32,000 nucleotides of DNA. Origin: an uncultured Clostridia bacterium (GTDB taxonomy: Bacteria; Bacillota; Clostridia; UMGS1810). Of this stretch, positions 1,393 to 14,181 are shown piece by piece (within the stretch, counting starts at the first letter, position 1; each line of letters opens with the position of its first letter). Below the pieces are notes generated by a model that was not told where the DNA came from, searched no databases, and saw nothing but the letters and a program-made list of their open reading frames with translations. The translations under genes and the position numbers were made by a program. The DNA is taken from assembly GCA_934454585.1 (NCBI GenBank), contig CAKSFP010000005.1, positions 9,053 to 41,052 on the forward strand, written 5' to 3'.

Positions 1393-1404
1393 AGGAGGAT
1401 GGCA

Positions 1405-3276
1405 ATGAAAAATTTTTGGGTTTTCAGATACTTAAAAAAATTTATACCGCTCATTGTCGTTTTGTGCGTTTTGGCGACATATGCCGTACATTTTAAGCTT
1501 GCAAGATCGAACACATATGTAGCGTCAGAGGTTATTCATTACAACGACGAGCAGGCGGAAAAAGGGCTCAATCCGACTGGGGGCAAGCTCGATGTAAATG
1601 AGATTAAATCTTCTGCGGTGATGTCAAAGGTTGTTGATAAGCTGGGGCTTACCGGGATTTATTCGGTGGACAGTCTTATATCGAGGATTGACATAACTCC
1701 CGTTGAGGACCAAGACAAGGTTGCGCAAAAGGAAGCAATGCGCGAGGCGGGCGAAGAATACACATACGAACCGAGTACATTTATTGTATCTTTTGCTGCC
1801 ACAAGCGGCGAAGGCTCGGGTTTTGCAAGCACAATAATCAATGAAACGCTGGATGTTTATTTTGAACAGTTCAGTGAGGAATATGTAAATGCGGTTCCGG
1901 CGAACAATACTGTTGCAAACTTAAACAAAAACGATTATGATTATATAGAGATGATGGAGATTATAGATTCAGATATCTCGGAAACCGTCAAAAGCCTGAA
2001 TCAGAGGATAGATAAAAACAATTATTACAGATCGACGGAGACGGGAGCATCGTTTGAGGAGCTTGCGGATGATTTTGATTATTTGAGACAGGTTAAGGTT
2101 TCCACGATTTTCTCGGAAATCTATAAATATCAGGTTACGAAAAACAAGTCGGTTCTTGTGTCCGACTATACGACCAGAATAGATAACAACGGTATTTCAA
2201 ATGCAAAAGATGAAAGCATTGTTGCAGATCTTGAAAATGTAATCGACGCTTATGTAAAAAAGATGAGAGATTCGGGAAATACCAATATAAGTCATGATTA
2301 TATACTTGACGATTTGCATGAGAAAAATGTTCAGGACTATGACGGAGACCAGACCGTAACATATGACGAGTTGATTTACAGCTGGAGGGATCATACCGAG
2401 AGCAGAGAACTGGCAATTATCGACTCGGCATATTGCCAGTATATATTAAACACATTTACAGCGTGCATAGGCAATTGCGGCGGCGAGTGCAAGTCATCCG
2501 GCCTTACATGCACGGAGCTTACAAATCCGGAATATGCTTTGGCAAGGGAAAAAATCGAACAGGAAATAGATGAGCTTTTAACCGAGCTTTCCGATCTTTA
2601 CGATAAGGCTATTAAAACAAACGAGGAGTACAACAAATATCTCGGTGCGAGTTATATTTCGGTGCTGTCAACGGCGTCTGTGAGGGAGAGCGTCAATGTA
2701 AAACTGTATACGGCAATTGCATTTTTCTTTTTCATGATTCTTTGTTGCGGCGCTGCAATTGTACTGGGGAGAGCTGCCGATATAATCACATATGTTTTCT
2801 ACACCGATCATCTTACGGGGCTGTATAACAGGGCGTATCTGGACAGATATCTCAAGTCCAAAGACAAGAAACTGCTTGATGACGGGGTCGTGTACTGCAT
2901 GGTCGATATAGTCAACCTGGTGCGCATAAACAACGATTATTCAAGAGATGTCGGCGATGAGATTATAAAAATGTTTACGCGGTATATTAAAGAGGTTTAC
3001 GGAAAATCCGATACCGAGTATGTTTACAACGGCAACGGCAGCTTTGTCATGCTGACAAAGGAGTCCGATTTTATCACGGTTGAGGACATGATGAAACTTT
3101 TCAGACTCAGGCTTGATGAGAGAGAAGAGTACAGAGAAGTTGTGATTGAATACAGGATAGGCATATCCGAGACATTTAAGGAAAACAAAACCGTAAGAAA
3201 ACTGCTTTCCGAGGCGATTGAGAATAAAAAGAGCTATATCTCGGACCTGAACAAAAATTCCGGACAAACCGAATAA
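1405..3276 (+). CDS. PCP/Wzz-like chain-length-determinant protein fused to a C-terminal degenerate GGDEF domain (GG[D/E]EF replaced by NGNGSF)
   Basis: ORF 1399-3276. ATG 1405 is preferred because AAAGGAGG (1391-1398) abuts ATG 1399. TM1 is IPLIVVLCVLATYAV, followed by ~400 aa that are extracytoplasmic, then TM2 (LYTAIAFFFFMILCCGAAIVLG), then a cytoplasmic DHLTGLYNRAYL...VDIVNLVRINNDYSRDVGDEI...YVYNGNGSFVML segment that is colinear with GGDEF domains. Confidence 0.7.
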   Translation: MKNFWVFRYLKKFIPLIVVLCVLATYAVHFKLARSNTYVASEVIHYNDEQAEKGLNPTGGKLDVNEIKSSAVMSKVVDKLGLTGIYSVDSLISRIDITPVEDQDKVAQKEAMREAGEEYTYEPSTFIVSFAATSGEGSGFASTIINETLDVYFEQFSEEYVNAVPANNTVANLNKNDYDYIEMMEIIDSDISETVKSLNQRIDKNNYYRSTETGASFEELADDFDYLRQVKVSTIFSEIYKYQVTKNKSVLVSDYTTRIDNNGISNAKDESIVADLENVIDAYVKKMRDSGNTNISHDYILDDLHEKNVQDYDGDQTVTYDELIYSWRDHTESRELAIIDSAYCQYILNTFTACIGNCGGECKSSGLTCTELTNPEYALAREKIEQEIDELLTELSDLYDKAIKTNEEYNKYLGASYISVLSTASVRESVNVKLYTAIAFFFFMILCCGAAIVLGRAADIITYVFYTDHLTGLYNRAYLDRYLKSKDKKLLDDGVVYCMVDIVNLVRINNDYSRDVGDEIIKMFTRYIKEVYGKSDTEYVYNGNGSFVMLTKESDFITVEDMMKLFRLRLDEREEYREVVIEYRIGISETFKENKTVRKLLSEAIENKKSYISDLNKNSGQTE

Positions 3277-3295: not shown

Positions 3296-4600
3296 GTGGA
3301 AAACAGAATCATCGAAATGGCAAAAGATTTTTATTTTCTTGTTGTCGCTGTCATGATGTATTATTTTCTGAATGAATACATTGATATAGGACTGTATGTC
3401 ACTTATCGCCACGCATTTGCCCTCGTACTTGCAGCCTCGGCTTTCGCTTTGTTTTTGTATAAGCCGAATATCGCTAGAGGACTCACCGCACTCAGCGGAG
3501 CGTTGGTTTACAGTGTTCCGCTGTTTGTCACCACTGTGGTGTCGCTCTTTATATGGCTTGTCGGAATGGCGGATGTGGCGGTTATATCAAGAGGGCTTTC
3601 AAGCTCTTTTGTATATATGAATATGCTGTCATTTGCTTTGGGGTCAGGGGCTCTTTTATATGTTTTCGGCGGCAGGGGAGTATGGTACAATCTGATAGCC
3701 ATTCTTACGGCAAATATGCTGATGATTGTCACGATTATAGCACAATACGGACTTGCAAGTTATTTCTCGGAATTTGTAACGCTTATAACAACCTTTGCGG
3801 ATGTGACCGGAGATATCATTGTCAAAGCGGAGATTCACGAGCTTGCATTTTGTCTTGGAGCATATTTAATCTATATGCTTTACAGACCGAAGAAAAGCAT
3901 GGGGTATTTTGTATTGCTTTTTCTGACACTTTTTTGTTTTCTGTCGGCGTTCAAGAGGATTGCTATGATTGCTGTAGCGGCTGCACTTGTATTCGGATAT
4001 TTGCTGAAATTTGTCATGCGCCGCAGCAAAAAAGCGGCGTGCGGTGCAGTTGTCGTTTTGAGCTTTGTCATCGTATTTTTGCTCATAGGATATGTTGCCC
4101 TCATAAAGTCAAATGTGTTTGAACTTTTGGAGAAGGCGGGAATAAACACGAGCGGACGCGTGGGGATGTATCGGGCAGTAGATAGATTTTACGAATTCAG
4201 TCCTGCTTTTTTGGGAAACGGTATAGGCTTTTTGACATATCAGCTGAACACCACCATGCACATCGGCGTAGCGTCCATTCACAACGACTTTCTGCAGCAT
4301 TTTATCGATTTGGGGTTTTGGGGCTATATCATATGGCTTCTGTCCATGATTTTGGCCCGGGTGTTATATTTCGGCAGACGCGGCAATGCGGACAATGCAA
4401 TTGTCACATTCATGCTGATACTTTACCTGGTGATTGTGTCATCGACTGACAACACGATGAACTATCCGCTTCTTACGGGAGTTCTTGCAATGCTGATGAT
4501 GGGAAACGGATTTGACAATGAGGTATGCCGCATAGAGAAAAGAATGTTTGGCTGTGTTTCAAAAGCAAACGAGGAAAAGAAAGGAGATTTGCTGCTGTGA
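3296..4600 (+). CDS. O-antigen ligase/polymerase family (Wzy-like) polytopic membrane protein
   Basis: 434 aa with about 10 or more hydrophobic helices. It has the Wzy_C-like motif ...GNGIGFLTYQ...IHNDFLQHFIDLGFWGYIIWLLS. GAGGGG lies 9 nt before GTG 3296. The stop overlaps the next gene's start (GTGA). Confidence 0.75.
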   Translation: MENRIIEMAKDFYFLVVAVMMYYFLNEYIDIGLYVTYRHAFALVLAASAFALFLYKPNIARGLTALSGALVYSVPLFVTTVVSLFIWLVGMADVAVISRGLSSSFVYMNMLSFALGSGALLYVFGGRGVWYNLIAILTANMLMIVTIIAQYGLASYFSEFVTLITTFADVTGDIIVKAEIHELAFCLGAYLIYMLYRPKKSMGYFVLLFLTLFCFLSAFKRIAMIAVAAALVFGYLLKFVMRRSKKAACGAVVVLSFVIVFLLIGYVALIKSNVFELLEKAGINTSGRVGMYRAVDRFYEFSPAFLGNGIGFLTYQLNTTMHIGVASIHNDFLQHFIDLGFWGYIIWLLSMILARVLYFGRRGNADNAIVTFMLILYLVIVSSTDNTMNYPLLTGVLAMLMMGNGFDNEVCRIEKRMFGCVSKANEEKKGDLLL

Positions 4601-5805
4601 GAATTTTGATGGTAAATAAGTTTTTGTACCCCCGCGGCGGAAGTGAAAGCTATATGCTCTATCTTGCGGACTATTTGAAAAAAATCGGTCATGAGGTCGA
4701 GTTTTTCGGTATGTATGATGAAAATAACACAGTAGGCAATTCCGCCGGTTTGTATACTCAAAATATGGACTTCCATTCAAACGGATTCGACAGATTTCTG
4801 TATCCGTTTAAGATTATATATTCTTTTGAGGCCAAGCGGAAGATTATGCGTGTCATAGACGATTTCAAACCCGATGTGGTTCATATGAACAATATAAACT
4901 TTCAACTTACTCCGTCTGTGATTTACGGCATAAAGAAGAAAGGCGTTCCAATCGTTCAGACTGTGCACGACTATCAGATGATTTGCCCTAATCATCTGCT
5001 TTACAACTTTGAAAAAAACACACCGTGCGAAAAATGTGTCGGCGGAAAATACAGCGACTGTATCGCAAACAGATGTATTCACGGTTCAAAAGTTAAGAGC
5101 ATTCTGGGAGTTGCCGAGGCAAAGTTCTACAATTTACTCAAAACATACAGATATGTCGATCTGTTTGTTTGCCCGAGCAGTTTTCTGGAAAACAAACTTC
5201 TCTCGGCAAGGAGTTATTTTAAGGGTAAGACAAAGACAATACACAATTACATAAACAAAGAAAAATTCAGAAAAACCGTCGGAGAGACGAAAGACTACAT
5301 TGCTTTTGTGGGGCGTCTTTCCGGAGAAAAGGGAATTGAAAATATCGCCGGGGCGGCAAAACTGCTCCCGGGATACACATTCATGGTTGCCGGCAGCGGA
5401 CCCGATGAGGCAGTGCTTCACGGTATCCCGAACATAAAGCTGACAGGATTCCTCACAGGGGACGAGCTGCGCGAATTTATCGGCAGAGCAAAGGTTCTCC
5501 TGTTGCCGTCCGTCTGTTATGAAAACTGTCCGCTCTCCATACTTGAGGCACACTGCATGGGAGTTCCCGTTGTAACGATGAACAGCGGTGGAATGGCAGA
5601 GCTTGTAGAGGACGGCGTCACGGGCACACTTGTAAACGACCCGACGCCCGAGGGAATTGCGGCAAAGTTAAAAGAAACCGTTGAAAATGATGATTACTAC
5701 AGACTCGTCAGAGAAAATTGCAAAAATGAAAAAGACAATATCCTGAGCGTTGAAACTTATGCCGATATATTGATTGATGAATACAAAAAGTTGGTTGCGA
5801 GGTGA
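4597..5805 (+). CDS. Glycosyltransferase family 4 (GT-B, group 1)
   Basis: N-terminus is VRILMVNKFLYPRGGSESYM. The C-terminal EX7E-type motif is YENCPLSILEAHCMGVPVVT...GGMAELVEDGVTG. GTG 4597 overlaps the upstream TGA, with AAAGGAGA 8 nt upstream. The longer ORF from 4525 is judged a false extension. Confidence 0.85.
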   Translation: MRILMVNKFLYPRGGSESYMLYLADYLKKIGHEVEFFGMYDENNTVGNSAGLYTQNMDFHSNGFDRFLYPFKIIYSFEAKRKIMRVIDDFKPDVVHMNNINFQLTPSVIYGIKKKGVPIVQTVHDYQMICPNHLLYNFEKNTPCEKCVGGKYSDCIANRCIHGSKVKSILGVAEAKFYNLLKTYRYVDLFVCPSSFLENKLLSARSYFKGKTKTIHNYINKEKFRKTVGETKDYIAFVGRLSGEKGIENIAGAAKLLPGYTFMVAGSGPDEAVLHGIPNIKLTGFLTGDELREFIGRAKVLLLPSVCYENCPLSILEAHCMGVPVVTMNSGGMAELVEDGVTGTLVNDPTPEGIAAKLKETVENDDYYRLVRENCKNEKDNILSVETYADILIDEYKKLVAR

Positions 5806-6869
5806 AAAGAGTGAAACGACCCAAAGTCAGCATCATCATTCCCGTGTATAATGCCGAGAAATTTCTCGACAGATGCATAAATTCCATAACAAATCAAACG
5901 CTGCGCGAAATCGAAATAATTCTTGTGGATGATTCATCGACAGATTCATCCCTTGAGATATGTCGGGCGGCGGCAGAGAAAGACAGCCGGATAAGGGTTA
6001 TTCACAAGGCGAACGGGGGCGCCGGAATGGCGCGAAACGAGGGGCTTAAAATTGCGGCCGGAGAATACATCGGTTTTGTGGATTCCGATGATTTTATCGC
6101 CGAAGATATGTATGAAACACTCTATAATAAGGCGAGAAAATACGATTCGGATCTTGTGATGAGCGGAGTTTTGTTTGCTGACGGAATCATGTTTTGCAAA
6201 GAGGGAGAATGTATTTGCAGAACCTGTTTTGAAAAAGACACTCATTTTGACGATCCGGACAGTCTGAAAGAACTTAAAACGGGCATCGTGGGAGCCGCAC
6301 CGGGGGATCCCGAGGACAGCAAATACGGAATGAGTATTTGGAAAAACCTTTTTAAGAATGAAATAATAAAGAAAAACAATATCGTCTTTCAATCCGAGAG
6401 GGAGATGCTGTCGGAGGACGCGTTGTTTATGATAGACTACATTTCATGCATAGACAGAGCGACGGGCATCCCGGGGGCGTTTTATAATTATTGCAGAAAC
6501 GGTGATTCTGTTTCAAAATCATACAAAAATGACAGATTTGAAAAAAGCCTTGTTTTCGTGAGTGAGGTCGAAAAAAGATTTCAAAAAGACATGACACCCA
6601 AGGAATACCGGATATATATATATAGATTTTGGCAGGCGATGTGCCGGGTGATATGTGTGCAGGAGATAATGCACGCAGAGGAGACAGGGGTTAAATATGC
6701 TGAATTGAAGAAAAGGCTGAAGGCGGTATGTACGCATGACTTCACGGTGAGCTCGCTTGAGTCATATCCGATAGGTACGCTGCCGCTCAAACAGGCGGTG
6801 TTTGCCTTTGGCATGAAATACAGACTGTATTTACTGTTGATAGTGCTTGTAAAACTAAGAAGCAAATAG
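5802..6869 (+). CDS. Glycosyltransferase family 2
   Basis: VSIIIPVYNAEKFLDRCINSITNQT...ILVDDSSTDSS...GFVDSDDF (GT-A fold with a DxD motif). The start overlaps the upstream stop (GTGA). Confidence 0.85.
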   Translation: MKRVKRPKVSIIIPVYNAEKFLDRCINSITNQTLREIEIILVDDSSTDSSLEICRAAAEKDSRIRVIHKANGGAGMARNEGLKIAAGEYIGFVDSDDFIAEDMYETLYNKARKYDSDLVMSGVLFADGIMFCKEGECICRTCFEKDTHFDDPDSLKELKTGIVGAAPGDPEDSKYGMSIWKNLFKNEIIKKNNIVFQSEREMLSEDALFMIDYISCIDRATGIPGAFYNYCRNGDSVSKSYKNDRFEKSLVFVSEVEKRFQKDMTPKEYRIYIYRFWQAMCRVICVQEIMHAEETGVKYAELKKRLKAVCTHDFTVSSLESYPIGTLPLKQAVFAFGMKYRLYLLLIVLVKLRSK

Positions 6870-6879
6870 GTGATGAGAT

Positions 6880-7902
6880 ATGTTTTTTTCCGTAATAGTA
6901 CCTGTATACAATGTCGAAAGATATTTGACCGACTGTATAAACAGCGTTTTGAATCAGAATTTTTCCGACTTTGAGCTTATATTGGTCGACGACGGATCGC
7001 CGGACGGCTGTCCGAAAATCTGTGATGAATACAGGGATAAAGATGCACGAATAAAAGTGATTCACAAACCAAACGGCGGTCTTGCGAGTGCCAGGAGAGC
7101 CGGAATTAAGATTGCCAAAGGAGATTATGTTTTCAATCTTGACTCCGACGATCTGATTGAAAAAGACACGCTGGAGTGTGCACATAGGATAATAATGGAC
7201 ACAAACTGCGAAATGGTATCGTTTTCTTACAGATGGGTCAAAGACGGCAGCACAGTAAACATAACGGACGATTGTCTCGATGAGGGACTCTATGACGGGG
7301 AAAAAATCAAAAAATATATTTACCCGAAACTGCTCATGGACAAAAATATGAATCATGTTTCATATTATCTGTCGGGAAAGGCAATAAAAAGAGAATTGCT
7401 GATGCCCTGCCAGCTTGCCGTGAACGAAAAAATATCTTTGGGCGAGGATTTTTGCTGTGTTCTCCCGTGTTATCTTAAAGCCGAAAGTGTGTATATAAGC
7501 AAAAAAGCGGCTTATCTGTATACCGTGAGGGAGGATTCTCTGTCAAAGGAGTTCAACTCAAGACAGATTTTTCTCGTGGAAGATGTTATATTTGAGATAG
7601 TTAAAAACGATGTCGATAAACTGACTGATTTTGGCGAACAGATTTGCCGTTACTCGTGCTTTATGTGTTTTGCAATATTGGCAGCTGCGGCAGAGGGCAA
7701 TCATTTTAAGTATATGAATGAGATTGCGGATAATATGGAACATTCGATTCACAAGGCACTAATTGACCGTGCGAAGTTTGAAAATATCACTCCAAAGAGT
7801 GCAATAGCTGTATTTCTGATAAAGAAAAGATTTTATTGCGCGGCGTTTTGTTTTCTTAATTTGTGCAAGAATATAAAAAAGATATTTAATAAAACGAGGT
7901 GA
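6880..7902 (+). CDS. Glycosyltransferase family 2
   Basis: FSVIVPVYNVERYLTDCINSVLNQ...ILVDDGSPDG...NLDSDDL. Confidence 0.85.
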   Translation: MFFSVIVPVYNVERYLTDCINSVLNQNFSDFELILVDDGSPDGCPKICDEYRDKDARIKVIHKPNGGLASARRAGIKIAKGDYVFNLDSDDLIEKDTLECAHRIIMDTNCEMVSFSYRWVKDGSTVNITDDCLDEGLYDGEKIKKYIYPKLLMDKNMNHVSYYLSGKAIKRELLMPCQLAVNEKISLGEDFCCVLPCYLKAESVYISKKAAYLYTVREDSLSKEFNSRQIFLVEDVIFEIVKNDVDKLTDFGEQICRYSCFMCFAILAAAAEGNHFKYMNEIADNMEHSIHKALIDRAKFENITPKSAIAVFLIKKRFYCAAFCFLNLCKNIKKIFNKTR

Positions 7903-7911
7903 GAAATCCAC

Positions 7912-8988
7912 ATGGCAAAAATATCGGTAATCATGAGTGTATATAACGGCGAAAAATATCTGAATGAAGCGATAGACAGTGTGAGAAATCAGACATTTGC
8001 GGATTGGGAACTGATTGTAATAAATGACTGTTCGACGGATTCCACGGGGGATATTCTTGCCGGATTTGCGGAGGCTGACGACAGGATAAAGGTTTACACA
8101 AATAAGGTCAATTTAAGACTTCCCGCTTCTCTTAACAAGGCAATTTCTCTTTGCAGCGGCAAGTATATCGCCAGGATGGATGCGGATGATATCTGTCTTT
8201 CGGAGAGATTCGAAAAACAATATGAATATATGGAGGAGCATCCGGATGTTGCGTTGTCGTCATGCAGATTTATGACTCTCAAGAACGGGGTATATTCATC
8301 GGGCGGTGCAGGCGGACGGTGCGACAACGAGGCGTTGCGCGCAATGCTGCTTGTGGCTAACCCGATACTTCACCCGGGGGTCATTGCGAGGACCGAGGTA
8401 CTCAGGGAAATGAATTACGATACAAGCCTTACATGCACAGAGGATTTGGAATTGTGGACACGGATGGCGACTGAGGGCAAAAAAATACAGCTTCTCCCCG
8501 AGTGCCTTCTGATATACAGACTTCACGACAAACAAATAACAGGCACTACATTGGAAAGACAACATGTCGAGGTGCTTAAAATTCAGCAAAAATACTATGC
8601 GGCGCTCCTTGAAAAAATGGGTGACGAGTTGCAGCGGTTTTATATCGGCGGAGTGTATTTCAGGGAGCAGCCCGATGTGCATAAGTTAATCAGGTATGCA
8701 AAATGGCTGAAAAGTAAGAGCGTCGGGAGTTTTGATGCTGACGACATAAACTATGCACTGCTTGAAGTTATAGCGGAGTACAAAAGATGCGGTGTGCCAA
8801 AAACAGATATCATAAGAGCGCTGTTCATGTTCAATCCCTTGTTTTTGACAAAGGAATTTGTTCGGAGAAAAAAAGCGGCAAAAAAAGATATCGAAAAATG
8901 TATGGAAGCCGCGTTAAAATCAGGGCTAAAACAAACCGGAGGAACGGCGGAGTTCCCCGTATTTCAAAAGGATAACGGGAGGGTGTAA
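7912..8988 (+). CDS. Glycosyltransferase family 2
   Basis: ISVIMSVYNGEKYLNEAIDSVRNQT...IVINDCSTDST...ARMDADDI. Confidence 0.85.
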   Translation: MAKISVIMSVYNGEKYLNEAIDSVRNQTFADWELIVINDCSTDSTGDILAGFAEADDRIKVYTNKVNLRLPASLNKAISLCSGKYIARMDADDICLSERFEKQYEYMEEHPDVALSSCRFMTLKNGVYSSGGAGGRCDNEALRAMLLVANPILHPGVIARTEVLREMNYDTSLTCTEDLELWTRMATEGKKIQLLPECLLIYRLHDKQITGTTLERQHVEVLKIQQKYYAALLEKMGDELQRFYIGGVYFREQPDVHKLIRYAKWLKSKSVGSFDADDINYALLEVIAEYKRCGVPKTDIIRALFMFNPLFLTKEFVRRKKAAKKDIEKCMEAALKSGLKQTGGTAEFPVFQKDNGRV

Positions 8989-10362
8989 ATGACGGTTTTT
9001 GAATACCCATATGTGATAATAACCATTCTTTCGGCGGTTTTTCTTGCGATGATCTTCTTCGGCGTGCATTTTACCTTGAAATCGGTAAAAACAGCGGACG
9101 GAACAGTCGAGAGAGATTTTTGCGGTATGGGGAAAATAGAAAATGACTTTGAAAAATCAGAAAATTTCGGAAAAATACAATCGCTGATGTATATTTCAAT
9201 GTCGCTTGACAGCGTGAAAAGACTGTATTCCGAGTCTCAGGCGGCAAGATTGTATGAACAAATAAAAAAAATTCTTTTTGAGAAGTTGTGTCTTGATATC
9301 GGCGGTGAAATTTCTGTTTGCGGCAATGGAAATTTTGTTTCGTTAAACGGCTTGGGATCGGGTGAGACTGAGCGTTGTATCGAGCTGTGCTCTGAAAAAA
9401 TCAATAAAATTTGCGTGGAACACAATGCTGTGAATGTTGTTCGAATGCATTTTGGATATATATGCACATCTTCAAACGAAATTTCATTTCAAATCGCTTT
9501 TGAAAGGGCAAAAAAAGCATTGAGTATAGCGGAAGATAAGGACATTTTATACTATCGCTGGGACAATCTGAGCGATAGAGAATTTGAAAAGAAACTGAAG
9601 ATAGAAAACAATATACAAAATGAAATTGAAAACAACAGATTTTTTCTTGAATATCAGCCTATTCTGGATGCAAAAACAAACAAGGTCATCGGCGCCGAGG
9701 TTTTGTCAAGACTCAATTCTCCTACGGAAGGAATCTTGGCGCCGCAGCTTTTTCTTTCGGCAGTAAACAATGTGGGACTGAACCAGAAGTTTGACTATTA
9801 TATTTTCGAGAAGAACTGCAAGTGGATTTCAAACGCAAGAGAGAAACGAGTCAAATATGTGTATACAATCAATTTTTCGCGCCATACGCTGTGTGACACG
9901 AATATGGTCGAAAATATAACAAATATCATAAAAAAATATGACATAGATTATTCGTGCATTGCCATTGAAGTGCTGGAAGACAAAACGCTCAATGAGACAG
10001 AAAGAGCGCAGATAGCGAGAAATCTGAATAGCTTGGCAGATAAAGGAATTCTAATTCTTCTTGACGATTTCGGCAAGGGTCATACCAGGTTTGAAGATTT
10101 GAACGATTTTGATGTAAGCATCGTAAAAATTGATAAGTCAATAACTCAAAATGCTACGAACCAAAAGGGGTTTTTGATTCTTAAAACGATTATTAAGATT
10201 GCACATGACCTCGGCTCAGCAACGCTTTGCGAAGGTGTGGAAACGGAGGAACAAAAAAAAGCCGCACTTGCTGCCGGCTGCGATATGTTTCAGGGTTATT
10301 ATTTTTATCATCCCATTCCGGTTACGAAGTTTGAAAAGTTGTTTGAGGAAAATTGTAATTGA
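8989..10362 (+). CDS. Membrane-anchored degenerate GGDEF (GNGNF) + EAL-domain protein; probable c-di-GMP phosphodiesterase
   Basis: N-terminal TM is VIITILSAVFLAMIFFGV. The middle domain has a GGDEF-like layout but the signature reads CGNGNF. The EAL domain keeps its hallmark residues: YQPI, EVLSR (9697-9711), INFS, IEVLE, LDDFG, KIDKS, CEGVETEE, FQGYYF. The ATG directly follows the upstream TAA (TAAATG). Confidence 0.85.
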   Translation: MTVFEYPYVIITILSAVFLAMIFFGVHFTLKSVKTADGTVERDFCGMGKIENDFEKSENFGKIQSLMYISMSLDSVKRLYSESQAARLYEQIKKILFEKLCLDIGGEISVCGNGNFVSLNGLGSGETERCIELCSEKINKICVEHNAVNVVRMHFGYICTSSNEISFQIAFERAKKALSIAEDKDILYYRWDNLSDREFEKKLKIENNIQNEIENNRFFLEYQPILDAKTNKVIGAEVLSRLNSPTEGILAPQLFLSAVNNVGLNQKFDYYIFEKNCKWISNAREKRVKYVYTINFSRHTLCDTNMVENITNIIKKYDIDYSCIAIEVLEDKTLNETERAQIARNLNSLADKGILILLDDFGKGHTRFEDLNDFDVSIVKIDKSITQNATNQKGFLILKTIIKIAHDLGSATLCEGVETEEQKKAALAAGCDMFQGYYFYHPIPVTKFEKLFEENCN

Positions 10363-11884: not shown

Positions 11885-11886
11885 AG

Positions 11887-11932
11887 AATCAGAGGGTTTA
11901 GAAAGACGATTGTTTTTCTAAACCCTCTGATT
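11887..11932. terminator. Bidirectional rho-independent terminator between convergent genes
   Basis: A perfect 18-bp stem (AATCAGAGGGTTTAGAAA / TTTCTAAACCCTCTGATT) with a 10-nt loop. T-rich tails follow on both strands. Confidence 0.8.
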
Positions 11933-13198
11933 TTATCTTGTAATTATTATCTTCTCAGCCGGACTGACAGGCCTGCAAGTCTTAAGGCTATCCCAGATGA
12001 ACACCTTGAGATAGGTTGCGCTGCCGAGACTTGACGCCGGAATCTGGATGTTAATTGCATTGACTGTCTTGCTTGTAGGCGTTGACGCGATGTGATAGTT
12101 GACAATCTCATTACTGCTGTTGTATAAAGCCGCGTGGATGCATTCTCCGCTGATAGGCTCGTCCATAGCCACGGTGACAGACAGATAACCGTTCGCCAGG
12201 ATGGCGGTCGAGTGGGTGTTGTTTGTCAGCTCCGTGCTGCCGCCCGAACTTCCGCCGGTTGCGGTGTATGGTATTCCGTATTCCTTTGCCACAGCCTCGG
12301 CATACGATCCGTATGTGGTGGTTATTTTGAGCGCCGAGCACCCCTCAAATGCGCCGTAGCCTATGTTCGACACAGTTGCCGGCAGATCCATAGCCGTAAG
12401 TGACAAGCAGTCGTAGAACACATAGTTACCCAGGGTGTTGAGCAGTTTCGGTGTGTTTATCGTCGTGAGCGCTTTGCAGCCGTAGAACATATACTGCGGC
12501 AGGCTTGTCAGCTTGTCCGGCAGATTGACTGTTGTGAGCAACATATTGTATGCAAAAGCATACTCGCCTATGTAGTAAACACTTTCCGGTATGGTGATTG
12601 TTGCAGGTGAGACAAACGACGAACTCTGGCGGAATGCATAGTCGGGTATGTACTTTACATTGCTGCCGAAGTTAATTGCCGTCACCGGGCTCTGATAGAA
12701 CACAGGACTTGTAAGCGTACCCATGGTTTCGCATTTTGTCGCGTTGAAATTGACCGTTGACAGGCTGCTGCACTTGGCAAACGCACCGCCGCCTATAGAG
12801 GTGACATTCTCGGGGATTGTGATGCTTGTCAGAGCCGTGCACCCGATAAATGCACCTGTGCCGATTGTCAGTTTTTTTGAATCGGAATTAATTGAAACCG
12901 ATTTGAGTTTTGTCAGGCTGTTGAAAGCCGCATTGCCTATGTGGCTGACAGTACCCGATATAACAACGCTTGTTATTGATGATGCATATGCATTGTACCA
13001 CGGAGTATCAGTCGCTTTGGCATAGTCCGCCATTTGGCAGTCGTTTGCGGATGTGGCGGATATCATGAGGGTGGTTCCGTTGAGCAACCATGAGCAAGAG
13101 CCTGTCGAACCCGATGTCGCCGCCGAAACCGTGATGCATGAGCCTGCCGCAAGGCAGACAATGAGCACGATGGTGAGAAGTAATTTTGTCTTTTTCAT
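11933..13198 (-). CDS. Secreted BspA-like leucine-rich-repeat (LRR_5 type) surface protein
   Basis: Signal peptide is MKKTKLLLTIVLIVCLAAGSCITVSA. It has repeated units of the type IGxxAFxxCxxLxSITIPxxVTSIG, then a Gly/Ser linker (GGSSGGS) and a C-terminal beta-rich domain. ATG 13198 is preferred over 13228. Confidence 0.8.
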   Translation of the reverse strand: MKKTKLLLTIVLIVCLAAGSCITVSAATSGSTGSCSWLLNGTTLMISATSANDCQMADYAKATDTPWYNAYASSITSVVISGTVSHIGNAAFNSLTKLKSVSINSDSKKLTIGTGAFIGCTALTSITIPENVTSIGGGAFAKCSSLSTVNFNATKCETMGTLTSPVFYQSPVTAINFGSNVKYIPDYAFRQSSSFVSPATITIPESVYYIGEYAFAYNMLLTTVNLPDKLTSLPQYMFYGCKALTTINTPKLLNTLGNYVFYDCLSLTAMDLPATVSNIGYGAFEGCSALKITTTYGSYAEAVAKEYGIPYTATGGSSGGSTELTNNTHSTAILANGYLSVTVAMDEPISGECIHAALYNSSNEIVNYHIASTPTSKTVNAINIQIPASSLGSATYLKVFIWDSLKTCRPVSPAEKIIITR

Positions 13199-13260
13199 TG
13201 TTTTGTCCTCCGAATGACGGGCAGGCATGATTTTCGCCGCCGTCCGATTTTGTTACATTA

Positions 13261-13290
13261 ATTATACCCATTCGGAAAAAACTTTGTCAA
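13261..13290 (-). promoter_or_regulatory. Candidate sigma-A-type promoter for the LRR gene
   Basis: On the minus strand: TTGACA (13290-13285), an 18-nt spacer, TATAAT (13266-13261). Confidence 0.35.
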
Positions 13291-13335: not shown

Positions 13336-14106
13336 TCAGCAGGCTTTCATTTCCAGCCTTATCTTGTCCGCAATCATGGCGATAAACTCGCTGTTTGTCG
13401 GCTTGCCCTTGCTCGAGAGTATCGTATAGCCGAAAAGGTCGTTTAGCACATCTGGATTGCCGCGGTCCCATGCCACCTCTATTGCATGGCGAATGGCGCG
13501 CTCCACTCTGGACGGTGTGGTGTTGTAGTGCTTGGCAACCGTGGGGTATAGGATTTTTGTGATGGAGTTTATTGCGTCCATATCCTCTATGACCATTGTT
13601 ATGGCGTCTCTTATGTACTGATAACCTTTTATGTGAGCCGGCACTCCGAGCTGCTGAATATGCATTGTGATGTTGGTCTCAAGATCTCTTGATTTTGAGT
13701 CGAATACATTTCCGCTGCTCTGCTTTTCGGCGGTGATGTCGGCTATACGGTCGCGCAGCACGGAAAATTCAAACGGCTTTATGAGATAATAGCTTGCGCC
13801 GTGATTCATTGCCGAGTTGATTATATTTTCGTGAGCGGACGGAGAGAATACTATTGTTTTGGGCTTTTTGCTCAGTATATTATTGTTGTTTATTTTTGCA
13901 AGAACCGCCAGGCCGTCGAGCAGCGGCAGGATTATGTTGACAAGCAGCACATCGGGTCTGGTCTCGAGCACTGTCTCATATGCTGTCTTGCCGTCGTGAG
14001 CCGTTCCGACCACTTCAAAACTTTCGATTTCGGACAGATAAGATTTCAAATTGCTGCAAAATTCTTTGTTATCATCCGCTATAACTATTCTTGTTCTTCT
14101 TTTCAT
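13336..14106 (-). CDS. spo0A: Sporulation master response regulator Spo0A (phosphoacceptor position is Asn)
   Basis: The receiver domain is [10 protein letters not shown]...[18 protein letters not shown]...LIKPF. The Spo0A-specific C-terminal domain is [59 protein letters not shown]. Confidence 0.93.
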
Positions 14107-14153: not shown

Positions 14154-14181
14154 ATTATAAACTATCCAAAATTCATTGCAA
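14154..14181 (-). promoter_or_regulatory. Candidate sigma-A-type promoter for spo0A
   Basis: On the minus strand: TTGCAA (14181-14176), a 16-nt spacer, TATAAT (14159-14154). It lies about 45 nt upstream of the ATG. Confidence 0.4.

Follow-up and report, generated by a model that had tools for sequence, protein, structure and literature searches.

Spo0A without its phosphoacceptor aspartate is fixed in a clade of uncultured Clostridia and is probably a maintained pseudo-receiver

Introduction

Can a Spo0A protein that lacks its phosphoacceptor aspartate still be a working regulator? Spo0A is the textbook phosphorylation-gated master regulator, its literature treats Asp phosphorylation as universal, and all Spo0A proteins studied depend on the conserved Asp. 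In C. difficile, the D56A change leaves Spo0A unphosphorylated and reduces sporulation by a factor of more than 1000, and laboratory D56N and D56A alleles are loss-of-function (C. difficile mutagenesis paper); a canonical Spo0A with such a change would therefore be inactive. The question is raised by a spo0A gene on a 32,000-nucleotide stretch of DNA from an uncultured Clostridia bacterium (GenBank assembly GCA_934454585.1, contig CAKSFP010000005.1, positions 9,053 to 41,052 of the forward strand), hereafter termed the window, in which Asn is encoded at the phosphoacceptor position. An earlier note on this DNA had pointed out the Asn and had considered three readings of it: a natural aspartate-less receiver, a recent inactivating mutation and a sequence error. 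Here, we show that the loss of the Asp is ancient, fixed and clade-wide, and we argue that the gene probably encodes a natural, selectively maintained pseudo-receiver form of Spo0A that works without canonical phosphorylation.

Results

The window encodes a Spo0A protein with Asn at position 57

The spo0A coding sequence lies on the minus strand at 13336..14106 and encodes 256 amino acids plus a stop codon. It was identified by TIGR02875, Pfam and structure matches. A Pfam scan placed Response_reg (PF00072) at residues 7-121 (71 bits) and Spo0A_C (PF08769) at residues 146-249 (156 bits, E = 3.9e-46), and the NCBIfam equivalog model TIGR02875 was matched with 327 bits against a cutoff of 200, over model positions 3-261 of 262. 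The closest solved structures are the Spo0A C-domains 1fc3 and 1lq1 and the Spo0A receivers 5wq0, 9phz and 1dz3. An AlphaFold2 single-chain model was computed from a 52-sequence alignment, with a mean predicted local distance difference test score (pLDDT) of 83. The receiver in this model has the canonical (β-α)5 topology, with 10-residue block-mean pLDDT values of 83-97: strand β3 spans residues 53-57 with N57 last, β4 spans residues 83-88 with S88 last, helix α4 spans residues 93-101, and β5 spans residues 106-109 and is followed by K110. Foldseek searches with the model returned a template modelling score (TM-score) of 0.93 to the Spo0A receivers 5wq0 and 1qmp, and the C-domains 1fc3 and 1lq1 were among the top matches (TM-score 0.87-0.92; 0.87-0.95 over all Spo0A matches). 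Thus, all sequence and fold criteria applied identify the window protein as Spo0A. Its receiver domain, of pseudo-receiver type, covers residues 5-125 (13732..14094, minus strand) and the Spo0A_C DNA-binding and transcription-activation domain covers residues 146-249 (13360..13671, minus strand).

Codon 57 is AAC, at 13936..13938 on the minus strand (GTT on the plus strand), and encodes Asn at the C-terminal end of β3, one transition away from the Asp codon GAC. In the HMMER alignment to the solved receiver 5wq0, N57 pairs with the Asp of the 5wq0 stretch 'PDVLLLDIIMPHLDG' ('lllDiimp' around that residue), i.e. with the phosphoacceptor. The other four residues of the active-site quintet are present: the D11-D12 acidic pair (14071..14076, minus strand), which binds metal in canonical receivers, S88 at the Ser/Thr position ending β4 ('VFSPS'; 13843..13845, minus strand) and K110 after β5 ('LIKPF'; 13777..13779, minus strand). 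The earlier note's description of this codon, of its coordinates and of a protein otherwise intact through the full Spo0A_C domain is therefore correct. The protein has the receiver plus Spo0A_C architecture, the equivalog score and the fold of its family, and lacks the phosphorylatable Asp. A PF00072 match without a phospho-accepting Asp is also what defines an aspartate-less receiver (PMC4395418, PMC12632262). Thus, the protein of this lineage belongs to the Spo0A family, one defining feature of which it lacks, and is by definition an aspartate-less receiver.

The Asn is neither a sequence error nor a recent lesion

Since a single transition separates AAC from GAC and since the corresponding laboratory alleles are inactive, an error of sequencing or assembly, or a strain-specific loss-of-function lesion heading to a pseudogene, had to be considered. 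In the assembly collection, 118 blocks index the exact 256-amino-acid sequence, and at least 23 contigs carry it; these measure up to 165 kb and come from various samples, Hadza gut metagenomes among them. In six of these contigs (L081-L086), the DNA differs from the window gene by 3-9 nucleotides, and they therefore represent independent strains and assemblies. That all of these differences are synonymous was rejected as evidence for purifying selection, the argument being circular for loci that were fetched by exact protein identity. The 90%-identity cluster of the protein contains 16 distinct sequences, and all 15 listed members keep N57 and the quintet DDNSK.

We then compared the protein with its 120 best matches in a collection of 5.8 billion proteins. 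The top 25 homologues (77-97% identity) all lack the Asp, with Asn in 22 and Gly in 3, while the remaining 95, at 74% identity or less, all have it. Position 57 in the 26 Asp-less sequences, window included, is thus Asn in 23 and Gly in 3. In a neighbour-joining tree built with column 57 removed, these 26 sequences form one clade in 100 of 100 bootstraps, and the clade is sister to ordinary Spo0A at 68-74% identity, on a short stem (0.075). The spo0A open reading frame is intact in every clade member.

Together, these results refute both readings, which we consider practically eliminated. An error is incompatible with the same protein on so many independent contigs and with Asn fixed among within-species variants. 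A recent inactivating mutation is incompatible with a monophyletic clade of 26 sequences in which both Asn codons occur, synonymous sites are saturated and purifying selection on the receiver is ongoing (see below). The possibility that the Asn is specific to one strain, with Asp in its relatives, had been named beforehand as one that would make the change a simple lesion, and the alignment shows instead that 25 of 25 nearest homologues lack the Asp. The earlier note's remaining reading, that of a natural aspartate-less Spo0A, is supported as far as sequence evidence reaches.

One Asp loss followed by an Asn-to-Gly change

In eight clade members with DNA available, the codons are AAC or AAT for Asn and GGT for Gly; the sister sequences have GAT or GAC. 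The three Gly sequences nest within the Asn clade, beside P0013, and the Gly form is seen in three separate samples (L089, L090 and L091, codon GGT). A single Asp-to-Asn change at the root of the clade, followed by an Asn-to-Gly change in one sub-lineage, would be the simplest history. The latter (AAT or AAC to GGT) takes two transitions, with Asp or Ser as the intermediate. The clade probably belongs to uncultured, Oscillospirales-like gut Clostridia, an assignment made because the nearest Asp-type relative, L003, is labelled Oscillospiraceae, source labels otherwise reading “Clostridia bacterium”.

Residue changes concentrate around the old active site

Comparison of the 26 Asp-less with the 95 Asp-type sequences yielded 19 clade-specific positions, 17 of which lie in the receiver. 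The only others are P198, in Spo0A_C, and C256, past its C-terminal end. Codon 256 (13339-13341, minus strand) encodes Cys in 23 of the 26 Asp-less sequences, and Ser, Val, Gly or Ala in the Asp-type sisters; a redox role for C256, like that of the regulatory Cys of RitR, is pure speculation.

Several of the receiver changes adjoin N57. Codon 56 (13939..13941, minus strand) encodes Val in the window, and the position is Thr in 94 of 95 sisters and Ile (20), Val (3), Met (1) or Leu (1) in the clade; this change from Thr to an aliphatic residue removes the sole neighbouring hydroxyl able to serve as an alternative phospho-site. Codon 60, at D+3 (13927..13929, minus strand), encodes Leu, and Met in 95 of 95 sisters is replaced by Leu in 23 clade members and kept in 3. 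The Gly sub-lineage is the one that retains Met here (“IGIVMP”), nearly all Asn members having Leu. Position 63 goes from Met in the sisters to Leu in the clade, and position 68 from Leu to Val. In the β4-α4 loop, codon 92 (13831..13833, minus strand) encodes His, where 92 of 95 sisters have Tyr and the clade has His (23) or Asn (3). At the C-terminal end of α4, codon 102 (13801..13803, minus strand) likewise encodes His, the sisters having Leu throughout (95 of 95) and the clade His (22), Arg (3) or Lys (1).

The quintet itself is loosened at two further positions. Residue 12 is Asp in 21 clade members and Glu in 5, vs Asp in 95 of 95 sisters, and residue 88 is Ser in 21, Ala in 4 and Gly in 1, vs Ser in 95 of 95. 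D11 is kept in 26 of 26, and K110 in 26 of 26 and in 95 of 95 sisters; D11, P61, K110 and P111 are invariant in the clade. Column entropy at positions 12, 56, 58, 60, 88 and 91 is ~0-0.08 bits in the sisters and 0.5-1.2 bits in the clade. Such local relaxation with a kept fold is the pattern expected if phosphoryl-transfer chemistry were no longer selected while the fold and some feature of the pocket still were. A shifted phosphoacceptor was ruled out: no clade-specific change creates an Asp, and the Asp-type sisters conserve D52 and D64 just as well, which bears out the earlier impression that no other retained Asp takes over the role.

Positions were mapped to C. difficile Spo0A in our own alignment, anchored on D56, S86 and K108, which pairs L60 with M59 and H92 with Q90. 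Sporulation of C. difficile is reduced by M59A and increased by Q90A; the latter is a gain-of-function change, as is Q90R in B. subtilis (C. difficile mutagenesis paper). The co-substitutions of the clade therefore fall on sites already known to tune Spo0A activity.

The receiver is under purifying selection

We next estimated substitution rates at synonymous (dS) and non-synonymous (dN) sites with the Nei-Gojobori method. Between clade members, dS was 1.7-2.7 or not computable, being saturated in most pairs, and the ratio dN/dS (omega) is therefore a rough upper-bound estimate, too high if anything, because saturation makes dS an underestimate. The dN values over clade pairs were 0.08-0.31 for the receiver and 0.01-0.08 for the DNA-binding domain; where computable, omega was 0.05-0.13 and 0.007-0.03, respectively. 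Most positions of the DNA-binding domain are invariant over clade and sisters. The ratio of receiver to DNA-binding domain protein divergence was 5.15 in the clade, 4.30 among the 95 Asp-type homologues and 4.77 in divergence-matched pairs, and this similarity indicates that the receiver as a whole has not been freed from constraint. Thus, the receiver is kept as a functional domain and is not a decaying relic.

The phosphoacceptor has been lost repeatedly in Spo0A

Loss of the Asp in other Spo0A lineages had not been anticipated by the earlier note. Among 80 species-representative Spo0A loci listed, 78 have Asp, one has Asn (the clade metagenome-assembled genome (MAG) L001) and one has Glu (L026). 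The Glu protein is an unrelated Spo0A from an uncultured Eubacteriales MAG (L026:2206-2961, plus strand, CAZMHL010000022.1). It is 51% identical to the window protein and has both Pfam domains intact, and its quintet reads D-C-E-S-K, with Cys at the second acidic position.

A wider, exhaustive HMMER search was made of 1.84 billion representatives at 50% identity, and the receiver was aligned in 137 of the best 150 matches (P0135-P0269 among them). The residue aligned with position 57 is Asp in 120 of these and another residue in 17: Glu in 8, Ser in 4, Asn in 3, Gly in 1 and Tyr in 1. Ten of the 17 were tested against TIGR02875, and all ten pass its cutoff (225-335 bits). The Asp-less representatives differ from the Asp-type ones in having Met at D+3 (18% vs 62%), Asp at the second acidic position (29% vs 67%) and Ala at T+1 (12% vs 54%) less often, with Fisher p values of ~1e-3 to 6e-3 that ignore phylogenetic non-independence. 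Together, these results indicate that Spo0A has lost its phospho-Asp repeatedly in evolution, with accompanying changes that are in part convergent. Paralogues may be included among the Asp-less representatives.

The same matches contain four receiver-less proteins of 394-454 amino acids (P0121, P0122, P0123 and P0126), each with three or four tandem Spo0A_C (PF08769) domains. To our knowledge, this architecture has not been described.

Genomic context of the Asp-less spo0A genes

The gene neighbourhood was inspected in the window and in ~20 kb around each other spo0A locus (~10 kb of flank per side). Upstream of the window gene, a putative sigma-A-type promoter, TTGCAA-16-TATAAT, lies at 14154..14181 on the minus strand, with 10 of 12 matches to the consensus, on which this call is based. 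Directly downstream lies a gene for a secreted BspA-type leucine-rich repeat (LRR) protein (11933..13228, minus strand; Pfam LRR_5, E = 1.4e-53), and the spacer between the two genes contains a further sigma-A promoter-like site, assigned to the LRR_5 gene, TTGACA-18-TATAAT, at 13261..13290 on the minus strand, with 12 of 12 consensus matches. In all six spo0A-LRR spacers examined, TTGACAAA is followed by a -10-like hexamer. The spo0A-then-LRR_5 pair is found in six of eight species-level clade contexts, namely the window, L088, L089, L092, L093/L094 and L095; an LRR_5 gene next to spo0A is absent in L087, in L001 and in the Asp-type sisters L002-L004. The M14 peptidase and LRR_5 genes converge on a hairpin with a 20-bp stem (11886-11933, plus strand), which likely acts as a terminator in both directions.

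At lower window coordinates, a polysaccharide-synthesis cluster (3296-8988) encodes a Wzy-like protein, a GT4 and three GT2 glycosyltransferases, and is bracketed by a GGDEF gene (1399-3276, plus strand) and an EAL gene (8989-10362, plus strand). This arrangement suggests cyclic di-GMP-linked control of exopolysaccharide at the bracketed cluster, which is separated from spo0A by the M14 peptidase and LRR genes. The other genes of the window encode two helix-turn-helix regulators, sugar-acid metabolism, AsnS, a branched-chain amino-acid ATP-binding cassette transporter, MltG/YceG and a rhamnosidase-like protein.

Neither the window nor the flanking DNA of seven other clade loci contains a sporulation-specific gene. 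The clade has no spoIVB gene beside spo0A, but neither do the Asp-type sisters L002-L004, for which reason spoIVB-spo0A synteny was rejected as a proxy for sporulation. Histidine kinase genes are likewise missing from the window and the inspected flanks; because the kinases of Spo0A are usually orphans that are not linked to it, this absence is uninformative.

Discussion

We propose that the clade probably carries a natural, lineage-wide and selectively maintained aspartate-less Spo0A, i.e. a pseudo-receiver protein that works without canonical phosphorylation. As the Asp is replaced by Asn or Gly, the canonical site would accept no phosphoryl group. In the ancestor of the clade, the phospho-accepting Asp would have become Asn, and in one sub-lineage the Asn would then have become Gly. 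The gene has not decayed: its DNA-binding domain is almost unchanged and its receiver keeps its fold under purifying selection, only the residues of phosphoryl chemistry having loosened. The receiver would thereby have become a phosphorylation-independent structural or regulatory module. The changes that were co-fixed near the old active site and in the β4-α4/α4 region (T56 to I/V, M60 to L, M63 to L, L68 to V, Y92 to H and L102 to H) plausibly bias it towards a conformation compatible with dimerisation and DNA binding in the unphosphorylated protein. Activity may then be set by expression level, a partner protein or a ligand, and not by a kinase or phosphorelay.

Several points weigh against this proposal. 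That the protein is not phosphorylated and that the co-substitutions activate it is what we infer from the sequences, as is its biological output. D11, D/E12, S88 (21 of 26) and K110 show stronger conservation than is usual for aspartate-less receivers, which keep the second acidic residue in just 29% of cases (Maule et al.), and the kept pocket could be a binding site for a metal, for a partner or for a mimic of the phosphoryl group, or could retain some phospho-chemistry. The 0A boxes lend no support to a regulon: TGTCGAA occurs 6 times in the window vs 5.4 expected by chance, and matches to TGNCGAA are scattered, with no consistent position upstream of spo0A or in the spo0A-LRR spacers of clade and sisters. 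These counts are no evidence for or against autoregulation. Lastly, the genome scan for a second, canonical spo0A covered one clade MAG, among the matches listed.

This last point bears on the possibility that a canonical, phosphorylatable spo0A is also encoded in these genomes and that the Asp-less copy is a modulator, which might for example pair in heterodimers, compete for 0A boxes or act as a kinase sink. Of 118 Spo0A-encoding genomes, 11 have two or three spo0A paralogues, and these 11 are all Clostridiales (Galperin et al.); our inspection spans only ~20 kb around each locus, and atypical response regulators do pair with typical ones, as BldM and WhiI do (PMC4125116). However, the one clade MAG scanned (JAZQEG01, L001) gave a single Spo0A locus among the matches listed (to ~47% identity, in a type of assembly that is incomplete), and the Asp-type sister MAGs L002-L004 gave no Asp-less copy among the matches listed. 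The orthologue-like position in the tree, as the short-stemmed sister of ordinary Spo0A, the full equivalog score and a DNA-binding domain with a single clade-specific change also speak against a paralogue, and we regard such a modulator as unlikely. We consider equally unlikely the converse and bolder idea, that the Asp-less protein is the sole Spo0A of these bacteria and still their master developmental switch, running sporulation or a derived Spo0A programme without His-Asp phosphotransfer. If it were so, the remodelled receiver, with its acidic pocket and His92/His102, would sense a ligand, metal, pH or partner protein, and, because 17 of 137 diverse representatives also lack the Asp, this would be a recurrent alternative wiring of Spo0A.

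Phosphorylation might also persist in other ways. Ser, Thr or His could replace the Asp as the acceptor, with S88 and the newly fixed H92 and H102 as candidates; CheY D57N is reportedly phosphorylatable at the adjacent Ser56. Two new histidines near the old active site and a mostly kept S88 would fit this. But the equivalent of CheY Ser56 has changed from Thr to Ile, Val, Leu or Met in every clade member, and no candidate is universal, S88 being Ala or Gly in 5 of 26, H92 Asn in 3 of 26 and H102 Arg or Lys in 4 of 26; we therefore disfavour this route as very unlikely. We also consider very unlikely a post-translational deamidation of Asn57 to Asp, by which regulation by kinases would be restored. 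The largely kept residues D11, D/E12, S88 and K110 are compatible with it, and Asn at a receiver phospho-site can revert to Asp (Maule et al.). However, the nested Gly sub-lineage, known from three independent samples, cannot deamidate, and the shell residues needed for phosphotransfer are relaxed. Furthermore, Ile or Val follows residue 57 in all members, and in peptide chemistry Asn followed by Ile or Val is among the slowest contexts for deamidation. A pseudo-receiver that works without canonical phosphorylation thus remains the reading that we favour.

If that reading is right, the clade would show that Spo0A can be retained in a role requiring neither the phosphorelay nor orphan kinases, and the roughly one-eighth of diverse representatives that carry Glu, Ser, Asn, Gly or Tyr at the site points the same way. 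It would also give a handle on the role of the spo0A genes retained in non-sporulating gut Clostridia, where the gene is kept in 32 of 42 cases (Galperin et al.), and it cautions that the presence of spo0A alone is a poor marker of sporulation in MAG surveys. The co-substitutions, at D-1, at D+3, at the Q90 equivalent and in α4, would provide a natural set for tracing the route from a phosphorylation-dependent to a phosphorylation-independent receiver.

How does the clade compare with known systems? Canonical Spo0A of B. subtilis and C. difficile shares with it the two-domain architecture, the receiver fold and D11, D12, S88 and K110, and the DNA-binding domain of the window protein is ~65% identical to the solved domains 1fc3 and 1lq1. 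The clade differs in lacking the phospho-Asp needed by every studied Spo0A and in its fixed changes at the M59 and Q90 equivalents. The inactive D56N allele of B. subtilis has the same substitution as the clade, whose state is natural across a diverged lineage and not that of a single engineered or selected allele. Sad67, the phosphorylation-independent form of B. subtilis Spo0A, is a deletion, whereas the clade has point substitutions instead. Sad67 is used as a constitutively active allele in published work, and D-to-E alleles of Spo0A need extra receiver changes for phosphorylation-free activity, according to Maule et al., citing Green et al. 1991.

No published description of a natural Asp-less Spo0A was found in a search that left subscription journals outside. 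Aspartate-less receivers, or pseudo-receivers, are a recognised class with many origins within all major response-regulator families, the commonest replacements of the Asp being Glu, then Asn, then Ser (Maule et al. and the pseudo-receiver literature). RitR of Streptococcus pneumoniae, the most thoroughly studied example with Asn, is like the clade in residue and in fold: it has Asn53 at the phospho-site and a kept receiver fold, binds DNA and is active without Asp phosphorylation, and mutation of the Asn leaves DNA binding and repression unaffected (Maule et al.). It is homologous to the clade protein only in the receiver fold, however, and differs in belonging to the OmpR family, in having lost the second acidic residue (Lys10) and the metal pocket, and in carrying Asp at the Ser/Thr position, whereas the clade keeps DD, S and K. 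ChxR of Chlamydia and HP1043/HsrA of Helicobacter dimerise and bind DNA without phosphorylation and are thought to be regulated through expression level; they belong to other output families and have far more degenerate active sites. WhiI and BldM of Streptomyces are atypical receiver regulators of a developmental, sporulation programme, and differ in being unrelated NarL-family proteins of Actinobacteria that form a heterodimer (PMC4125116). Against the background of typical aspartate-less receivers, the clade stands out in keeping the other four active-site residues unusually well.

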